Virus record (IMG/VR): IMGVR_UViG_2718217867_000004
Location: 1 to 40,589 of that record
From: a virus
Lineage: Duplodnaviria > Heunggongvirae > Uroviricota > Caudoviricetes
Reading direction: 5' to 3' (one strand)
DNA length: 40,589 nt
Positions 4,692 to 36,058 of the stretch are shown piece after piece. How positions within the stretch are numbered: position 1 is the stretch's first letter; each line of letters opens with the position of its first letter. Position numbers and translations under genes: made by a program. Below the pieces are notes generated by a model. That model was not told the origin of the DNA and ran no database searches. It saw nothing but the letters and a program-made list of their open reading frames with translations.

Positions 4692-6642
4692 CCATCGCCG
4701 TGACCACCGCGCCCCCCTTCACCGTCCGTCGGGTTGTCTGCCCCGTGGCGGTGTTGGTGACGTTAATGTCCAGCCGGATTTTGTTTTCGCTGAAACCGCG
4801 ACTGATTTCATCCCGCACGTCAGTCCCTGAACTGCCGGACTGCGGCATGATGATGCTGCCGCCGGATACCTGTGACATGTGCCTGAACACCTTCAGCGCG
4901 TAGGTCTGTGTCTCCTGCGGCATCCCCTTCTGTCCGCGAAGCCAGGCGCTCATATTGCCTTCGCCCCAGTTGTACGCCTGAAAGGCGCGCTGCATGTCAC
5001 CACCATACTGCGCCATCAGCCCCGCCAGTTTTCTGGCGGCTGCCTCCGAGGCCCGGTAAGGGTTGAATACATCCATACCGGAAAGACCATACTCCCGGGC
5101 CGTCGGGTCAATGAACTGAAACATCCCCTTTGCCGTGCCGTAACGGGTGAGCGGCCCGACAGCATCCGCCCGCCCGGACGACTCCGTCATGGCCAGACCG
5201 TACAGCGTGTTTTCCGGCAGGTTGTACTGCTTCTCCAGTGCCGCAAAATGCGCCCGCAGTTCAGGGGTGATATCACGACCACCGGCACCGTTTTTTTGTG
5301 GTGACGTGATCTGTGACAGGGCCGGAGACACCATAACTTTCGACAGATCGTCATTCAGCATCGTGGTAAGCGCATTCAGTCTGTCGGACCGCTGACCGGA
5401 CAGACGCGTGTGCATCTCCAGGAGATCTGATGTCGCGATATTGTTATCGAGATTGTATCTTTGCCGGGACGTCAGTGATTTCAGTTGCTCCGGATGGGCA
5501 TACAGATAACCGCGCAGCTCTGACAGACGGTCCCCCGTTTTCTGCTGACTGCTGCGCTGACCGGTCAGGACATCGGTCGCCCAGTCCACGGAGGCGGTGA
5601 CAGCATCACTGCCCAGTACCTTCGCCTTCATCCTGCCGGTGAAACCATCCCACGCGGCTGACAGACGGTTCAGGTTGCTGTTCGCCTGAACCAGCTTCGC
5701 ATTCAGACTGTCCGGCATCGACAGCCCCAGACGATCGGACTCCGCCAGCGCCGCATTCAGGTTTTTCGTTCCCCGCAGCAGCGCCAGTTGTGCATCCGAC
5801 AGCCCCAGCGCGTCTGCCACCACCTTCTGCGACGAACTGTTCAGTCGCCCGAAGGCATCAATCAGGTTCTGCGTGCTCTTTTCCAGGTTCACCGTGTGGT
5901 CGCTATTCTCCGCCAGCTTCACACCAAACTGGTTAAGAATGCCCGTGACCTCCGGTGAACGGGTGTTCAGCGCATCGTTCAGTGTCGTGAACAGTGCACC
6001 GGTCTCCGCCTGTGCCTGATCTGCCGACAGGCTCATCAGACGGAACACCCCGGCAAAGCGGCTGAACGCACTCACGCGCATTCCGGCGTTCCTTGCGTTC
6101 ACATCCAGGCTGTATGCCGCTTTCGAGGCATCATAAAGATTACTGACGACCGCCTTCACCGCCATGCCACCGCCAGCGACCACAAGCCCCGCAAGACCTC
6201 CGCGCCCCAGCGCACTGAACAACTCTGATGACAGTGCCCCGACATTGCGCAGCGGCGGCACAATATCCCCGAAATGCTGTGACGTGTCCTTCCCCAGCCG
6301 GGACAGCCGTTCAAAATATCCGGACATCCTGTCCGCATTCTCCTGACTCTCCCTTCCCAGCGCCCTGTTACCCGCCCTGTCTGTGGCCAGCAGCGCGTTC
6401 ATCAGTAGCGTAACCGAATCGTGGATCTGCGTTATCTTCCCGCCCAGCGCATCCGCCGCACCGGATGCCCCGTTCAGGGACGTGTCATTTACTTCACCCA
6501 GCTCCTCAGACAGACCTGACACGCTGGCCGCCGCCTGCTCTGCGTTACCTGCCAGCAGTCCTGCAGCCTCTGAGGCTCTCAGTAAAAGCGCATCCGCGTT
6601 ACCCTTTGCATTCAGCTCAAAAACAAAAGCATTACCCGCCAT
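4684..6642 (-). CDS. Tail tape measure protein with C-terminal lytic transglycosylase (SLT) domain
   Basis: About 650 aa, Ala/Leu-rich alpha-helical N-terminal two-thirds; C-terminal motif LAMTESSGRADAVGP...GMFQF...AYNWG matches the SLT catalytic signature. Start placed at the ATG with a GGAG SD (the track uses an upstream GTG at 6648). Confidence 0.85.
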   Translation of the reverse strand: MAGNAFVFELNAKGNADALLLRASEAAGLLAGNAEQAAASVSGLSEELGEVNDTSLNGASGAADALGGKITQIHDSVTLLMNALLATDRAGNRALGRESQENADRMSGYFERLSRLGKDTSQHFGDIVPPLRNVGALSSELFSALGRGGLAGLVVAGGGMAVKAVVSNLYDASKAAYSLDVNARNAGMRVSAFSRFAGVFRLMSLSADQAQAETGALFTTLNDALNTRSPEVTGILNQFGVKLAENSDHTVNLEKSTQNLIDAFGRLNSSSQKVVADALGLSDAQLALLRGTKNLNAALAESDRLGLSMPDSLNAKLVQANSNLNRLSAAWDGFTGRMKAKVLGSDAVTASVDWATDVLTGQRSSQQKTGDRLSELRGYLYAHPEQLKSLTSRQRYNLDNNIATSDLLEMHTRLSGQRSDRLNALTTMLNDDLSKVMVSPALSQITSPQKNGAGGRDITPELRAHFAALEKQYNLPENTLYGLAMTESSGRADAVGPLTRYGTAKGMFQFIDPTAREYGLSGMDVFNPYRASEAAARKLAGLMAQYGGDMQRAFQAYNWGEGNMSAWLRGQKGMPQETQTYALKVFRHMSQVSGGSIIMPQSGSSGTDVRDEISRGFSENKIRLDINVTNTATGQTTRRTVKGGAVVTAMDV

Positions 6643-7463: not shown

Positions 7464-8966
7464 TTAATCGCTGCGGCTGTTCAGCCTGAACTGGTTCAGC
7501 ACCGCAAAGATGCGTAACTGGTTCATCAGGCGGCCCGGCCACACCACGTTCACGCGGTTCGGGTTGTCACTGTCACGCTCAACCACCAGTTGCTCCGCAA
7601 ACGCATCCGCATTCTGCACGTAGCCGTTGCTCGCCAGCGTCCGGAACCGGGCGATCAGCTCAGCACGAATAATCGCAGGTGTGGCTATCGCAGCCCCTGC
7701 CGGAATATTCGCGTCGTCATCTGCCAGCTTCATCCGTCCAAACTTCGAGGTCACCTGTGTGCGCATGTCGCGGCATACATACATCAGCGTGTACATCGTC
7801 TCGATCTGCAGGTAGCTGTCGTCTGTCGCACCGTATCGGTTGGTCTGGTACGTGGTGATGGTATTCTCAAGCGTCACCGTATCGTCGGCCGACACCGTGA
7901 AGGTTGAGATACCGCTGTAGAGAAGCGTGTTCCGCTCCGTCAGGGTGAAACGGCTTGCCAGCGGCGGGGCCAGCACACCGGATACCGGCAGCGTCTGGGT
8001 GGGTCTCGCCGGATCGTTGCGGACCGACTGCGCCAGCGCCCCCACCATCGCGGCGGCATAGTCATATGAGGTGTTCGGACCGTCATACACTCCCCAGAGT
8101 GTCATGTGCTGGTCGTTGCGGCGCTCTCCCTTGTCTGCCAGCTCGCCATAGCTGCCGTTTACCGCCGTGAAGGCATGGCCGTAAATTTGTTTGTCCCACG
8201 CCCAGCGACCTTCGTCATCCGACAGAAAATCCTTCATGTCGTTGAGCGATGTGGTGTCGGAATACGCCAGGACAATGAAATCAAACGTGCGGTCGCCCAG
8301 AGAGGCGAGCGCATCCGCAAGGTCCGGCGCACCCTCCCCGCCACTCATCGCCGTGATGGTCAGCGTCAGGCCGTCCGGGGTGGACTCGCCGCCGGATGAC
8401 CCGAGATAGTTCAGCCGGATATCAATGGTGTTTCCCGTCTCACCGGCATTTCTGGCCGTAAGCTCAACGGTCGTGCCATCACGGGGCACGGAGGCCGTCA
8501 CCGGCAGCCCGGAGGTGGCGTTGATTCTGTCTGCCAGCAGACTGGCAATCTCTGCCCGCGTGTACGCTGGCTTCACCGTCAGGCGCACGCGGGTGCCTGC
8601 GATGTACAGGTAAATAACGCCGGATGCCGTCGGCACACTGTCAACAGATATACTGCCTGTGGCCGTCGTCATGCTGCTGTCATCATCTGCCAGCGGCAGC
8701 AGCCAGGTCTCTCCGTAGCTGTCATTTTTAAGGTAGGCCATCAGCATGGTATGCAGCATGGAGCCTTCCCCGCACAGCCCGGCAGCCATGGAGGCCGATG
8801 AACAGCGGTATGCCGTCCCTGCCGTGGCCGTTCCCGCAGCCGTCATCTGACCAATCAGCAGGGTGCGCTGCGTCTCCGTGGCGCTGTTCGCCATTGAGTT
8901 GTCCACTTCAACATAGAACAGTGGCACACGGAGATTTGACGGGATATTGCTGAACGATACCGTCAT
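7464..8966 (-). CDS. Tail sheath protein
   Basis: 500 aa ORF with a sequence typical of contractile tail sheath proteins; followed by tube and chaperone genes. Confidence 0.9.
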   Translation of the reverse strand: MTVSFSNIPSNLRVPLFYVEVDNSMANSATETQRTLLIGQMTAAGTATAGTAYRCSSASMAAGLCGEGSMLHTMLMAYLKNDSYGETWLLPLADDDSSMTTATGSISVDSVPTASGVIYLYIAGTRVRLTVKPAYTRAEIASLLADRINATSGLPVTASVPRDGTTVELTARNAGETGNTIDIRLNYLGSSGGESTPDGLTLTITAMSGGEGAPDLADALASLGDRTFDFIVLAYSDTTSLNDMKDFLSDDEGRWAWDKQIYGHAFTAVNGSYGELADKGERRNDQHMTLWGVYDGPNTSYDYAAAMVGALAQSVRNDPARPTQTLPVSGVLAPPLASRFTLTERNTLLYSGISTFTVSADDTVTLENTITTYQTNRYGATDDSYLQIETMYTLMYVCRDMRTQVTSKFGRMKLADDDANIPAGAAIATPAIIRAELIARFRTLASNGYVQNADAFAEQLVVERDSDNPNRVNVVWPGRLMNQLRIFAVLNQFRLNSRSD

Positions 8967-19815: not shown

Positions 19816-20199
19816 TCAGCGTTTCAACTGAAAATGAGGTCCGTCTTTCAGTGTTTTCCAGTCGCCGCCCCATTCGATGGCAGTTCCCAGCTCTGCGGCA
19901 GCCTGCTTAAATGCCTGCGCGATTTTCTCGTACAGAGGCCAGTCCCATGACACCTGGCTGCCAATGTAGGCCACAACATCCACCGCATCACCGGTCAGGT
20001 GGCGGCTGTTCATGGTCTGGCTTTTTCCTTCCGCGACCAGTTGTTTCTGGCGCTCTTTCGTGCGCAGACCTTCCGTAATACCAAAATCAACCTCCGTCAG
20101 TTCAAGGGCACGGCGAACTACAGCAACCAGCTGTGGTCTGACACCCTCCAGATTTTTCTCGCTCCGGCGGCTGAATCTGAATTTACCCGACATATTCAC
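19816..20199 (-). CDS. Endolysin, peptidase M15 family (L-alanyl-D-glutamate endopeptidase-like)
   Basis: 127 aa; SRHLTGDAVD and WGGDW motifs typical of zinc-dependent M15 cell-wall peptidases; sits in the lysis cassette. Confidence 0.85.
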   Translation of the reverse strand: MNMSGKFRFSRRSEKNLEGVRPQLVAVVRRALELTEVDFGITEGLRTKERQKQLVAEGKSQTMNSRHLTGDAVDVVAYIGSQVSWDWPLYEKIAQAFKQAAAELGTAIEWGGDWKTLKDGPHFQLKR

Positions 20200-20471
20200 C
20201 TCAACAATGGAAAGATTCTTGTGACGTTCCCGCGTGCGCGTATCACCAGCACGCAGAACAGCAGATTAAAAAACACCTCCAGCCAGCCCGTTGCTAACGA
20301 GCGACCACACAGATAGCTGAGGGGGGCAAAGGCATACAGCAGCATCAGCAGCCAGGCCAGCCATGACATCAGCGGTTTGTGCCTGGAGTCACGACGACGA
20401 TAAAAAAAGAGCGTCAGCACGATAACCGTGCATAACGCCACATTCAGCAATCCGGGAAGGTTACTTAACAT
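20196..20471 (-). CDS. Membrane protein of lysis cassette (holin/antiholin-like)
   Basis: 91 aa, strongly hydrophobic with several predicted TM helices; between holin and endolysin. Confidence 0.5.
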   Translation of the reverse strand: MLSNLPGLLNVALCTVIVLTLFFYRRRDSRHKPLMSWLAWLLMLLYAFAPLSYLCGRSLATGWLEVFFNLLFCVLVIRARGNVTRIFPLLR

Positions 20472-20856
20472 TGCCGCCTCCTCCGCCCCGCAGGCGCGAG
20501 AACAGACCAGACACCAGTGATGCGATATCCTGCTGGTGGATGAATGACATAATCTTTACCGACACCAGCGATACCAGCACCGCACACAATGCATCTGCAG
20601 ACGTGCCGTCATAACCAGTTTTTGATGCCACCCAGGCTGAAAGCAAACGCGCACCCAGTACGCCGACGATAAATGACACAAGAAAATGTGCCGCCACCCG
20701 CCATGCTGAAAGCGCCTGCGGTATCGTTGCAACAAACAACGCCCCCGCAAATGCGCCAAACACAATCCCGAAATCCGTTCCGGTAAACAGCCCGAAAACA
20801 GTCGCCCCACCGAGCGCAGCAGCTGTGCCGGAACCGGATAAGGGTTCAGACATACT
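20461..20856 (-). CDS. Holin-like membrane protein
   Basis: Start at MSEPLSG (CAGGAG SD); Gly/Ala-rich multi-TM protein; first gene after a strong terminator. Confidence 0.6.
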   Translation of the reverse strand, partial: SMSEPLSGSGTAAALGGATVFGLFTGTDFGIVFGAFAGALFVATIPQALSAWRVAAHFLVSFIVGVLGARLLSAWVASKTGYDGTSADALCAVLVSLVSVKIMSFIHQQDIASLVSGLFSRLRGGGGGNVK

Positions 20857-20892
20857 TTTTCTCCTGTAAATTAAAAAAGGCCACCAGCGGAC

Positions 20893-20942
20893 CAAAAAAA
20901 ACACCACACCAAAGACATCCGCAGATGCCTTTGTGTGGTGTT
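20893..20942 (-). terminator. Rho-independent terminator upstream of the lysis cassette
   Basis: Minus-strand hairpin with 14-bp arms (ACACCACACAAAGG / CTTTGGTGTGGTGT) followed by T8. Confidence 0.6.
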
Positions 20943-22032: not shown

Positions 22033-22107
<75 letters not shown>

Positions 22108-22110
22108 CAT

Positions 22111-22186
<76 letters not shown>

Positions 22187-22352
22187 CATTGGTTCCTCAG
22201 GTGTGGATGAGATGCCCGGATACATAAATTACCCTCCCTTGGAACCGACGAAGAATAATAATGAATTCCGCTCCTGTTTCAATACAAACAATGTCAGGTA
22301 TTTAAAACATAATTATACAATATTATAAAAATTAAAAAGTTCGCAAAAAAAG

Positions 22353-24025: not shown

Positions 24026-24850
24026 TCAATTATGTTTTAAGAATGGATAGGTAAAGAATAACAAGTGACACAGATTCAGACCAAAATGGAAAAGGGTTGC
24101 CACCCACAAGCGCCCACTCCACATCCATGACAATCCATACACAACACCAGATAACGTGGCAAATAATACAAGTAAAGCACCACCTGAATAGTGAAAAAGA
24201 CCAAACAACAAAGACGCCACAATTAACGCAATCAATGGAGACGTTACTTCTGATAGCCGTGATTGAATATACCCTCTAAATAATGATTCCTCTGCCAGAG
24301 ACACAAAAAACAAATTAGCCAATATAAACTCTGGCAACCACTCAGGAAAATGAATCTCTGGCTTTAACCCACCAAAAAAAACAGCCCAAAAAAGGATAAG
24401 AGGAACAGAGAGCAACAGAGCCCCCCATTTCCACAAAGACACTTCTGATTTCACTTCTTTTTTAAACAAAGAAGCTGTACACAGGACTAACAAAAATGGC
24501 ACCAGCGCTTTATCAAAATTAAAATACATTGTATAGGGAGTGCTTTGAGGTCCGACAGTAACAGACTTTAGCACTACAGGATTGTGAAACCCTGGCCATA
24601 AATGGAAAGATAATGCTATGGCTGATAAAACTATGCCAGCTTCATATATGGATTTAGCCCAGGCGTTATATTTCCAGTTGAACTTCAAAATAATAAAAAA
24701 AACGATTGTAGCAACAAAAAACAACACAGGCCAATCAATAATATCATTAAGCACAGCCAGGACAACAGACACCGTCAACAATGAAAAAGCCACTACCTTA
24801 TGCCAACTGAGAGTTGACAGTGACAGTGCTAACACAATCCACATAAACAC
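24026..24850 (-). CDS. CPBP family intramembrane metalloprotease (CAAX protease / Abi family)
   Basis: 274 aa polytopic membrane protein with EExxxR (LAEESLFRGY), FxxxH (FGLFHYS) and a second His motif (LFHFGLN); strong AAGGAG SD; markedly low GC; first gene downstream of Q. Confidence 0.85.
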   Translation of the reverse strand: MFMWIVLALSLSTLSWHKVVAFSLLTVSVVLAVLNDIIDWPVLFFVATIVFFIILKFNWKYNAWAKSIYEAGIVLSAIALSFHLWPGFHNPVVLKSVTVGPQSTPYTMYFNFDKALVPFLLVLCTASLFKKEVKSEVSLWKWGALLLSVPLILFWAVFFGGLKPEIHFPEWLPEFILANLFFVSLAEESLFRGYIQSRLSEVTSPLIALIVASLLFGLFHYSGGALLVLFATLSGVVYGLSWMWSGRLWVATLFHFGLNLCHLLFFTYPFLKHN

Positions 24851-27063: not shown

Positions 27064-27249
27064 CTGTTTTCTCTGCAGGCGCAGCAGGTGCCAGTTGTTC
27101 AGGCTGGCGTGCGGCAATATTGTCTCTGATTTCTGTTGTCGTCAACCGCTTCTGCGCTTACTCACTTGATGAGTGAGGCGATTAACTTTACTATTTACTT
27201 AACAGGTTTTTCCTGTACCACAATTCCCCAATACAGGAGGCCATCATGA

Positions 27250-27582
27250 GTGACGACAAAAAAATTGAGTTCAGCACCAGCTGATGTGTTGAATGCTTTA
27301 CTCCATCGCCATCAGAATATGCAACATCTTGCAACACAGGAAAGCGTTGATAACTTACGTCGCGAGATTGATAGTCGATTTAATGCTTCACAAGAAAACG
27401 TTGATAATCTGCGTCGGGAAGTCGATAGTCGCTTTAACTCTTTGCAAAATCAGTTAATGTCGGTTGATAAGCGTCTGGATAAACTGGAAACCAAGTTTGA
27501 CCGACTCCAGTGGTTTATCGTTGCCGCTGCTCTGGCACTCATCTTTAAAGATTACATCCTCAGGTTTATGGGTGCTTTATAA
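27250..27582 (+). CDS. Coiled-coil protein with C-terminal transmembrane helix (membrane-anchored)
   Basis: 110 aa; internal repeat (SVDNLRREIDSRFNASQ / NVDNLRREVDSRFNSLQ), C-terminal hydrophobic helix; GTG start 10 nt after an AGGAGG SD, with an ATG four bases upstream in another frame; convergent with hok. Confidence 0.55.
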   Translation: MTTKKLSSAPADVLNALLHRHQNMQHLATQESVDNLRREIDSRFNASQENVDNLRREVDSRFNSLQNQLMSVDKRLDKLETKFDRLQWFIVAAALALIFKDYILRFMGAL

Positions 27583-27585
27583 AAC

Positions 27586-27609
27586 CATAAAAAACCCGCC
27601 GAAGCGGGT
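27586..27609. terminator. Bidirectional terminator between the coiled-coil gene and hok
   Basis: Hairpin CCCGCCGAAGCGGG flanked by an A-run upstream and TT downstream on the plus strand; strong T-run on the minus strand. Confidence 0.6.
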
Positions 27610-27678
27610 TAAGTGCGGGTGCGTTGAGGATGCCTGACACATCAGAGGTGGCGAGGGATTTCTCCCCCGCCTGGTCTC

Positions 27679-27834
27679 TTACTCCTCAGGTTCGTAAGCT
27701 GTGAAGACAGCGACCTCCGTCTGGCCGGTTCGGATTCGTACCTCGCAGAGGTCTTTCCTCGTTACCAGTGCCGTCACTATGACGGTTAAACAGATGACGA
27801 TCAGGGCGATTAACATCGCCTTTTGCTGCTTCAT
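27679..27834 (-). CDS. hokD: Hok/Gef family type I toxin (HokD/RelF-like)
   Basis: 51 aa MKQQKAMLIALIVICLTVIVTALVTRKDLCEVRIRTGQTEVAVFTAYEPEE: single TM helix plus the conserved Hok motif; matches the HokD sequence as I recall it. Confidence 0.9.
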   Translation of the reverse strand: MKQQKAMLIALIVICLTVIVTALVTRKDLCEVRIRTGQTEVAVFTAYEPEE

Positions 27835-27892
27835 AGCCTGCTTCTCCTTGCCTTTCGGCACGTAAGAGGCTAATCTTCAGTTGTCGAGACAT
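27686..27892 (-). CDS. mok-like overlapping reading frame (modulator of killing)
   Basis: 68-codon ORF starting upstream of hok and overlapping it in another frame, as in hok/mok/sok loci. Confidence 0.45.
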   Translation of the reverse strand: MSRQLKISLLRAERQGEAGYEAAKGDVNRPDRHLFNRHSDGTGNEERPLRGTNPNRPDGGRCLHSLRT

Positions 27893-28264
27893 AAGACTGG
27901 CCTCACTTCGATTTATAGTCGGGTGGGGCTTTTCTCTATCTGCCGTTGGTGTTCATGCCCGAGGCAGATAGCCTCAAGCACCCGCAGCAATTCTACTTAA
28001 CTCCCATCACCTCGCCAATATGAAATCAATCAGAAAGGTGATCCATGAGAACAATAACAAGACAATAAATTGCCATTACAGCCACAATAGCCAGCGCGCA
28101 TTTCAGAACCAGCACGATAACCTCCCACATTTAGCGTGCACGTGCATGATAAATATGTGTCCGTGTTATCACAGCAGCAATAGAAGATAAGATTTCGTTA
28201 TGTCGATATTTAACTCTGTGCGTTAAGCGCCCTGCTTATGTACACAAGGCGCGTTCTTAATGCC

Positions 28265-28348
28265 TTACCCCCAGCGGCAAATCGAATACACCACCAGCGC
28301 CACCGCCATCGCAATTCCTGCCGTTGCAAATGCTTCAGGCCAGCTCAT
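28265..28348 (-). CDS. Small hydrophobic peptide (27 aa), hypothetical
   Basis: ATG overlapping the DUF551 stop (ATGA) with a GGAGGTGA SD; peptide MSWPEAFATAGIAMAVALVVYSICRWG is one TM helix; below the ORF-track cutoff. Confidence 0.35.
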   Translation of the reverse strand: MSWPEAFATAGIAMAVALVVYSICRWG

Positions 28349-28725
28349 TGACTCACCTCCTGCGGCGGTTCCGGTAGCTGCATCCAGTGAGTTGCTTGCT
28401 CAATACCATTACCCGGCTTAATCGTTGCATCTCCGCGCCGAAAGGTGCTTCCGGTATAGCGTGCGGAGCATATTAGCGGTTCAACCAGAGAGCTATCGAA
28501 ATTCACTGAAATAAGCACGTTCTCGCCCTTTTCAGGCATTCGCGCACTACAGCTTATCCAACCATCCGGAGTTACCGGATAGTTGCGCATTGCGATCTTA
28601 AATACCTCATAGAAGCAACCTTTCAGATTATTGAACTGACGCCCGTTCAGAGGGCCATGTTCTGTCAATATGTTGTGTAATTTCCATGCCGCGTCGTTAA
28701 CTTCGTTGGATGACATGGGAGGCAA
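28345..28725 (-). CDS. DUF551-like phage protein
   Basis: 126 aa ORF in the nin region; family assigned from memory of the sequence type. Confidence 0.7.
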   Translation of the reverse strand: MPPMSSNEVNDAAWKLHNILTEHGPLNGRQFNNLKGCFYEVFKIAMRNYPVTPDGWISCSARMPEKGENVLISVNFDSSLVEPLICSARYTGSTFRRGDATIKPGNGIEQATHWMQLPEPPQEVSQ

Positions 28726-36000: not shown

Positions 36001-36058
36001 TTTTCTGGTGACGTTTGGCGGTATCAGTTTTACTCCGTGACTGCTCTGCCGCCCTTTT
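36001..36058 (+). ncRNA. dicF: DicF small RNA
   Basis: TTTCTGGTGACGTTTGGCGGTATCAGTTTTACTCCGTGACTGCTCTGCCGCCCTTTTT matches the DicF sequence as I recall it, with its intrinsic terminator; lies upstream of dicB. Confidence 0.85.

Follow-up and report, generated by a model that had tools for sequence, protein, structure and literature searches.

The window analysed here was the whole 40,589-nucleotide (nt) stretch of the Caudoviricetes record IMGVR_UViG_2718217867_000004, and the locus in question was a small plus-strand gene of this prophage-like sequence at 27234-27582, encoding a predicted coiled-coil membrane protein. The locus has two candidate start codons in different frames behind one Shine-Dalgarno sequence. 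Its start region contained the following features:

27235-27240 (+): Shine-Dalgarno sequence AGGAGG, conserved across the Escherichia coli alleles compared.
27246-27284 (+): probable ancestral ATG and the 12-codon frame remaining from it (MSDDKKIEFSTS), which ends at a TGA made by the frameshift; read from the translation and from homologues.
27250-27582 (+): annotated 110-amino-acid (aa) open reading frame (ORF) starting at GTG; residues 1-11 appear to be out of frame, with the genuine frame from residue 12 (DVLNALLH...).
27258-27264 (+): A7 run, AAA AAA A(TT), encoding Lys-Lys-Ile in the ATG frame; not the frameshift site.
27271-27284 (unstranded): palindrome TCAGC-ACCA-GCTGA, five pairs in the hairpin scan.
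27282 (+): one-base insertion of T, AGC-T-GAT against AGC GAT or AGT GAT in intact alleles, from the DNA alignment.

The ATG (27246-27248) was separated from AGGAGG by a 5-nt spacer, and the GTG (27250-27252), in the +1 frame, by a 9-nt spacer. Reading from the ATG gave 12 sense codons and then TGA at 27282-27284; reading from the GTG gave the 110-aa ORF. The same GTG ORF was annotated by PGAP as a 'hypothetical protein' (WP_064757999.1) in E. coli PapM-36-2, which was 100% identical to the window over 27100-27700. AGGAGG, the ATG with its 12 codons, and the GTG that opens the 110-aa ORF had all been read correctly in the original prediction, which was made from the letters of the window. That prediction had also placed an A7 run between the two starts; the run exists, and it sits 3' of both start codons and 5' of the ATG-frame stop. 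The arithmetic by which deletion of one A would fuse the ATG in frame was right, and any single-base deletion within 27250-27281 would likewise join the ATG to the long ORF.

Homologues were drawn as 75 clusters from a collection of 5.8 billion proteins. In total, 73 of the 75 clusters started in the ATG frame, mostly as MSDDKKIEFSTSDVLNALLH or MSDDKKIEFSTSD, and these clusters came from E. coli, Salmonella, Photorhabdus, Erwinia, Serratia, Pantoea, and Vibrio. The commonest homologue N-terminus was M-S-D-D-K-K-I-E-F-S-T-S-D-V-L-N-A-L-L-H. There were two exceptions: cluster P0001, which starts MTTKKLSSAPA like the window protein and carries a V-to-I change, and cluster P0075, whose 70 aa correspond to only the C-terminal half of the query. 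The proposal that the gene simply has a GTG start was therefore wrong for the family, and the opposite of homologues uniformly starting at GTG was seen.

A three-way DNA alignment compared the window with two other allele types, from the complete E. coli genomes RM11911 and 04-00955. The upstream region, Shine-Dalgarno sequence, ATG, and A7 run were all conserved in both genomes, and the 120 nt 5' of the ATG were nearly identical among the three alleles. In RM11911 and 04-00955 the ATG was in frame with the entire gene, and PGAP starts both genes there. The differences among alleles near the start (GAC/GAT, AGC/AGT) were synonymous when read in the ATG frame and changed residues when read in the GTG frame. 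Altogether, the relatives shared one frame from a common start, and the window copy carried an indel that breaks it.

The indel was located at T27282. The window read ACCAGC-T-GATG and the intact alleles read ACCAGCGATG or ACCAGTGATG, so that the window had one base more. T27282 lies 18 nt 3' of the A-run, outside any homopolymer, and creates the ATG-frame TGA; its removal restored MSDDKKIEFSTSDVL.... The start region, with the A7 run and AGCTGATG, was identical in nine other assemblies (L004-L012, where L007 and L001 are one record), short-read metagenome contigs included, and the exact window protein was indexed in 119 blocks of the assembly collection. The lesion was thus reproducible in separate sequence data. 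Its recurrence in nine other assemblies marks the allele as a genuine mutation, as opposed to a homopolymer error or programmed slippage.

T27282 also completed the perfect palindrome TCAGC-ACCA-GCTGA, whereas the intact AGC allele (TCAGC-ACCA-GCGA) leaves one base unpaired. The insertion would fit the signature expected of template-switch 'quasi-palindrome' mutagenesis, with a stem of only 5 bp. Changes specific to the window lineage comprised 15 synonymous and 6 non-synonymous substitutions, and the gene contained no other stops. The intact downstream frame would point either to a young frameshift or to retained residual function.

On this evidence, the locus very likely holds a frameshifted copy of a conserved accessory gene that lambdoid prophages carry as a one-gene unit (a 'moron'), with ATG 27246 as its native start. 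Ribosomes starting at this ATG would stop after 12 codons because of the frame shift at T27282. The long ORF would be open back to GTG 27250 by chance only, and gene callers would choose that GTG. With its better codon and 5-nt spacing, the ATG would be expected to take most ribosomes. Translation of the long ORF could then follow three routes, namely: minor initiation at GTG 27250 from the same Shine-Dalgarno sequence, in competition with the ATG; re-initiation at the in-frame GTG 27286, just past the TGA; and rare +1 slippage at the A-run. None of the three routes would be likely to reach wild-type levels, and, with its altered N-terminus, the window allele is most likely either a young pseudogene or a strong hypomorph. 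In the GTG product, LSSAPA stands in place of IEFSTS, the conserved hydrophobic Phe9 becomes Ser, and a Pro is introduced. The N-terminus MTTKKLSSAPA, as judged from these comparisons, would be out-of-frame sequence.

Several observations weigh against a frameshift allele of a membrane-anchored accessory gene. The frameshift allele is widespread (the 119 index blocks) and its downstream ORF is intact, both of which are also expected of a functional gene initiated at GTG. A GTG placed 9 nt from a strong Shine-Dalgarno sequence is a workable start. The putative promoter of the gene, at 27166-27194, fell under the 9/12 threshold of the promoter scan and was missed by it. In addition, the hydrophobic C-terminal segment holds a conserved Lys-Asp/Glu pair and is not a textbook transmembrane helix.

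The first two of these observations bear on the alternative that GTG 27250 is a genuine and sufficient start and that the gene is functional as annotated, its new 11-residue N-terminus being tolerated or even selected. The intact 110-aa ORF and its PGAP call agree with this alternative, as do the Shine-Dalgarno sequence 9 nt 5' of the GTG and the occurrence of the allele in a large collection without secondary lesions (15 synonymous against 6 non-synonymous lineage-specific changes). In Erwinia and Pantoea, moreover, the start at the homologous Met position may be a GTG or TTG, as read from the sequence upstream of SEDKK. However, an ATG with better spacing and a stronger codon stands 4 nt upstream in the other frame and should capture most initiating ribosomes, and the replaced residues include conserved positions of the head (the hydrophobic position of IEF and the S/T position). 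Every other cluster was in the ATG frame (73 of 75, excepting P0001 and the partial P0075), and the prevalence of the allele was explained by the spread of one prophage lineage, since its neighbours were identical. A genuine GTG start was therefore judged unlikely for this locus.

The A-run was surveyed in 12 E. coli loci and 26 further related loci. The run was A7 wherever the protein read Lys-Lys-Ile and A6 where it read Lys-Lys-Val, and it was always in frame with the first Met; A7 Lys-Lys-Ile loci among the 26 further loci came from E. coli, Photorhabdus, and Vibrio. Counted in relatives in this way, the A-tract was constant, and tract-length variation that would toggle the frame, as in a phase-variable homopolymer, was not seen. 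Because the A-run showed no length variation and was ordinary coding sequence, homopolymer error, phase variation, and a selected recoding site were in practice ruled out. The break was T27282 and not the A7 run, which the original prediction had taken for a possible lesion or slippage-prone homopolymer.

Programmed recoding would require the ribosome or RNA polymerase to make a +1 shift, or to drop one A, at the A7 run and so join the ATG to the long ORF. A tRNA-Lys paired with the second AAA could move one base downstream and pair perfectly again, giving MSDDKK-LSSAPADVL... with the junction peptide MSDDKKLSSAPADVL. However, intact relatives carry the same A7 without needing a shift, and thus the run is not selected for recoding. 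The next zero-frame codon, ATT, is neither slow nor a stop, and seven A's are at or below the length where E. coli RNA polymerase slips appreciably. Recoding at the A7 run would amount to a low-level accidental rescue at most, and as a programmed mechanism it is highly improbable. Almost no credence is due to an error of sequencing or assembly, or to a slippage-prone, phase-variable A7 homopolymer, as the source of the frameshift: A7 runs are classic indel-error sites and removal of one A restores the frame, but the run was A7 whether the allele was intact or frameshifted, the additional base is a T in non-repetitive context 18 nt 3' of the run, and the sequence was identical in nine other assemblies.

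One further feature was read upstream of the start region:

27166-27194 (+): putative sigma-70 promoter TTGATG-17 nt-TACTAT, read from the sequence, with 8 of 12 consensus matches.

This putative promoter is plausible but weak, and would give a 5' untranslated region of about 45 nt. An inverted repeat over its -35 element (CTCACT-TGATG-AGTGAG) was considered as an operator and dropped because it was not conserved in RM11911. The putative 5' untranslated region contained ACAGG at 27202-27206, CCTGT at 27212-27216, and a second ACAGG at 27233-27237 that overlaps the Shine-Dalgarno sequence. The CCTGT may pair with either ACAGG, freeing or masking the ribosome-binding site, and with stems of 5 bp the arrangement may be due to chance.

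The protein encoded downstream of the start region contained three further features:

27325-27354 (+): HLATQESVDN, the most conserved motif of the family in alignments.
27335-27437 (+): tandem repeat of 54 nt (18 residues), 1.9 copies with 79% matches; in the protein, ESVDNLRREIDSRFNASQ / ENVDNLRREVDSRFNSLQ.
27511-27570 (+): predicted C-terminal hydrophobic tail anchor WFIVAAALALIFKDYILRFM from the Kyte-Doolittle profile, with conserved KFDRLQ before it.

Family alignments defined four regions. The first was a conserved head of about 25 residues, with the pattern [I/F/L]-[ST]-x-x-[DEQ]-[VLI]-[LIM]-x-x-L-L-H. At the junction of head and stalk was the motif H-x-A-T-Q-E-S-V-D, in which H, A, T, Q, and E were invariant in the close family. 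A variable stalk lay between this neck motif and the C-terminus, and the C-terminus itself was nearly invariant: K-[FL]-D-R-L-Q-W-F-I-V-A-A-A-L-A-L-I-F-K-[DE]-Y. The Kyte-Doolittle maximum in a 19-residue window was 1.76, at residues 89-107. An AlphaFold2 monomer model built with the family alignment formed one continuous helix over residues 11-110, with a mean predicted local distance difference test (pLDDT) score of 77. The internal repeat and the coiled coil with a C-terminal hydrophobic anchor, both of which had been proposed from the sequence, were borne out by the repeat scan, the long predicted helix, and the hydropathy maximum.

Stalk length varied by whole units. Among E. coli alleles the 18-residue unit occurred in 1, 2, or 3 copies, corresponding to proteins of 92-93, 110-111, and 129 aa. 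Other E. coli alleles had units of 11 residues (EQETERRFNKL), and Photorhabdus, Erwinia, and Pantoea had units of 7 residues (RFEQVDK). Overall, family members were 88 to 173 aa long. Units of 7, 11, and 18 residues would keep the coiled-coil register, so that the length of the stalk varies with head and anchor fixed. The intact protein is accordingly predicted to be a tail-anchored inner-membrane protein with a short head, an HxATQE neck of the beta-layer type, a coiled-coil stalk, and a C-terminal anchor; the head would lie in the cytoplasm and the assembly would be trimeric. The family profile also matched very large proteins, namely: P0078 (7009 aa), P0084 (1344 aa), P0088 (1734 aa), and P0094 (1247 aa). 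These matches comprised up to 14 matched stretches, and the proteins are presumably long coiled-coil repeat proteins of the RFExVDK type.

In the E. coli prophages examined, the gene stood by itself every time, with the early-right/nin genes (replication genes, DUF1627, DUF4406, Ead/Ea22, DUF551 ... DUF968, RusA, Q) on the other strand. It occupied a fixed slot between a 90-aa ORF upstream of DUF968 and the DUF551/hokD side. Carriage of any allele was limited to 5 of 5426 complete E. coli genomes, and related prophages were polymorphic for presence or absence of the gene at this slot. An intact homologue used as tblastn query had no match among 50,697 sequenced phage records. No conserved partner gene was found, and neighbour clustering of 26 loci yielded the Photorhabdus icd synteny only.

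In Photorhabdus, the homologue was directly downstream of icd in 13 of 13 species sampled (loci L013-L016 and L024-L039, with the gene at about 8001-8396 or 5001-5400); upstream synteny was fixed and downstream synteny differed between species groups. In E. coli the 3' end of icd is an integration site for phages (e14, phage 21), and the Photorhabdus gene resembles a lone remnant of an old insertion. Elsewhere, the Vibrio homologue was inside a type-IV-secretion-like island, the Erwinia homologue was beside a HicB-like gene among insertion sequence (IS) elements, and a family member was found in the replication module of an Enc34-like phage. As read from these loci, the family profile is that of a self-contained accessory gene (moron), apparently domesticated in one genus.

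The 3' side of the gene was shared with a convergent toxin gene:

27593-27610 (unstranded): GC-rich hairpin shared with convergent hokD, a canonical terminator on the minus strand and a hairpin without a T-run on the plus strand.

The type I toxin gene hokD was at 27679-27834 (-), and the sok RNA (Rfam RF01794, 116.8 bits) was at 27829-27983. Relatives without hokD had their own plus-strand terminator, GCCCCG-TTTT-CGGGGC followed by a T-rich tail. The minus-strand terminator of hokD (27610-27593) was strong, lay 11 nt past the stop of the 110-aa ORF, and stood in the path of early-right transcription towards Q.

Opposing early-right transcription and having putative signals of its own, the gene would probably be expressed in the lysogen and act at the cytoplasmic membrane. 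Our best guess from this setting is a role of benefit to the host or lysogen, e.g., exclusion of incoming elements or envelope modulation; the version of this idea that invokes exclusion or competition is offered tentatively.

The start oddity of the locus has an ordinary answer, and the residual interest lies in a family without a Pfam model and in a natural allele pair. WP_064757999.1, with its GTG start and MTTKKLSSAPA, describes a frameshifted copy and should be flagged, or avoided as a family reference. More generally, when another frame happens to be open, gene callers can miss an indel that is turning a gene into a pseudogene. The intact family is compact, widely mobile, and uncharacterised, with an unusually conserved head and neck on a membrane coiled-coil protein. 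Frameshifted and intact alleles in otherwise similar prophages provide a ready-made comparison for finding its function.

Other features were recorded around the locus and elsewhere in the window. PapM-36-2 (L001, 6807-7841) had about 1.1 kb extra after hokD, with a partial 'integrase core domain' IS remnant. The window, at about 27900-28350, was without this extra sequence and had gene spacing as in L012 and L008; L009 had an intact 388-aa IS transposase at the position of the IS remnant. A CPBP/Rce1-like intramembrane protease gene (PF02517, 72 bits) was at 24026-24850 (-), directly 3' of the Q antiterminator gene. This post-Q slot is accessory and late-promoter-proximal, and the cargo of other prophages there comprised ORF6N, a type I restriction-modification system, and TfpB. 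Genes for tRNA-Gly(tcc) and tRNA-Thr(tgt) were at 22034-22187 (-), between a DNA methyltransferase gene and the lysis genes. The DicF antisense RNA (Rfam RF00039, 76.7 bits) was at 36003-36054 (+), in the immunity/early-left region, as in Qin-type prophages.

Comparison with known families gave no model at cutoff in Pfam, NCBIfam, or PADLOC; the window protein and 40 to 50 relatives gave generic coiled-coil matches. PHROGs matches recurring across members were 6701, 12015, and 5553, all families of unknown function. Sequence and profile searches of the PDB returned influenza HA2, other coiled coils, and motif-level matches to 6h9l and 5apz, none significant as homology. The literature search found no match for the accession numbers or signature peptides.

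The original prediction had likened the protein to XhlA, and the corresponding alternative is that it is an XhlA-like lysis accessory factor acting with a holin. XhlA of the Bacillus prophage PBSX (PF10779) is also small and prophage-encoded, and likewise combines a coiled coil with a membrane segment at its C-terminus, so the architecture is the same. PF10779 matched 4 of 40 members below threshold (best 1.5e-5, 25.5 bits against a cutoff of 34.7), and phrog_937 'hemolysin', likewise below threshold, matched 4 of 40 members, with 0.0066 for the window protein. XhlA, however, owes its definition to joint action with XhlB and XlyA from the xhlA-xhlB-xlyA operon (PMC5589764), a source that also describes the requirement for XhlA in lysis. 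No member reached the Pfam cutoff for PF10779, which was not among the 25 best listed matches of the window protein. The lysis cassette of the window, at 19816-20907 (-), consisted of tandem holins (PF16931 Phage_holin_8 and PF05449 Phage_holin_3_7) followed by a Peptidase_M15_4 endolysin. The gene lies about 6.3 kb from this cassette, in the nin region on the opposite strand. Its hosts are Gram-negative, and in Photorhabdus it is a solo chromosomal gene beside icd. The likeness to XhlA was one of architecture, and an XhlA-like lysis role is very unlikely.

A second comparison was with ElaB, YqjD, and YgaM (DUF883), C-tail-anchored inner-membrane proteins of E. coli with about 100 residues, a helical cytoplasmic part, and a single C-terminal anchor, as predicted here. 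Those three are core stationary-phase genes and not mobile single-gene units. No sequence relation to DUF883 appeared in any family listing of the window protein or its relatives.

The neck motif led to a third comparison, with beta-layer coiled coils (Thermosinus Tcar0761, PDB 5apz; the ATKEDIEAL-repeat protein of 6h9l), in that LATQESVDN fits the nonad MATKDDIAN. Hartmann et al. (PMC4786415) give beta-layer motifs as [aliphatic]-A-T-K-[polar]-[DE] and point out that the stalk of DUF1640 membrane proteins begins with one. In the family, L-A-T-Q-E-S-V-D-N follows the pattern of the nonad M-A-T-K-D-D-I-A-N at the same place, with Q or R for K. The distant member P0169 had extra internal KLATKEELAKLD units, and its best PDB match was 5apz (the Tcar0761 construct), at motif level and not significant. 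The best PDB match of the head profile was 6h9l, aligned on ATKEDI units with an E value of 0.095, likewise not significant; coiled-coil composition inflates PDB scores of this kind.

The closest comparison was with the DUF1640 / CCDC90-like family (PF07798), which includes mitochondrial MCUR1, CCDC90B, and many prokaryotic and prophage proteins. The predicted layout here matches that of its members: a short N-terminal head, A-T-K/Q/R-x-D/E where the stalk begins, a coiled-coil stalk, and a membrane anchor at the C-terminus (PMC4786415). Prophage regions are also reported to carry DUF1640 genes (PMC5291501). PF07798 was not among the listed matches of the window protein or the close family, and remote relatives matched it below threshold (20-22 bits against a cutoff of 33.5).

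Two viral contigs, L058 and L059, carried proteins with a DUF1640-type head (FDTLQASEELEGAGISREQA...VATKADI) that matched PF07798 at 21 bits, below the same cutoff. The pattern of this phage head was FDTL...AGISREQA...VATKADI, joined to the C-terminal module KFDRLQWF..FKE. The C-terminal 57 residues (EKRFDRLEQKFDRLQWFLLAGILGLLFKE...) aligned with the family over 57 columns with an hhalign probability of 98.8% and an E value of 1.2e-16 (L058 protein). The two genes (L058, 3854-4312; L059, 3845-4204) differed by an 11-residue stalk unit and an N-terminal extension. Both were in the slot between an Enc34-type single-stranded DNA-binding protein (SSB) and PolA, and the related phage L056 had a true family member there. 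The head profile of the family did not align with the DUF1640-like phage head (hhalign probability 0.3%), and the family head is about 15-20 residues shorter.

We conclude from these alignments that the family is a sister group of the DUF1640-like proteins: the end of the stalk and the anchor module are common to both, as is probably the principle of the neck, and the head of the family is different and shorter. It is not a demonstrated member of PF07798. A tentative extension would place the intact gene in an as yet unnamed clade of alpha/beta coiled-coil proteins that are tail-anchored and probably trimers, with a DUF1640-like anchor and a head of their own. Such a clade would be a one-gene unit moving among lambdoid prophages, Enc34-like phages, and conjugative-type islands, and domesticated beside icd across the genus Photorhabdus; a stalk tunable in units of 7, 11, and 18 residues would set the distance between head and inner membrane, where the head could serve the lysogen, e.g., by blocking entry or assembly of competing elements.

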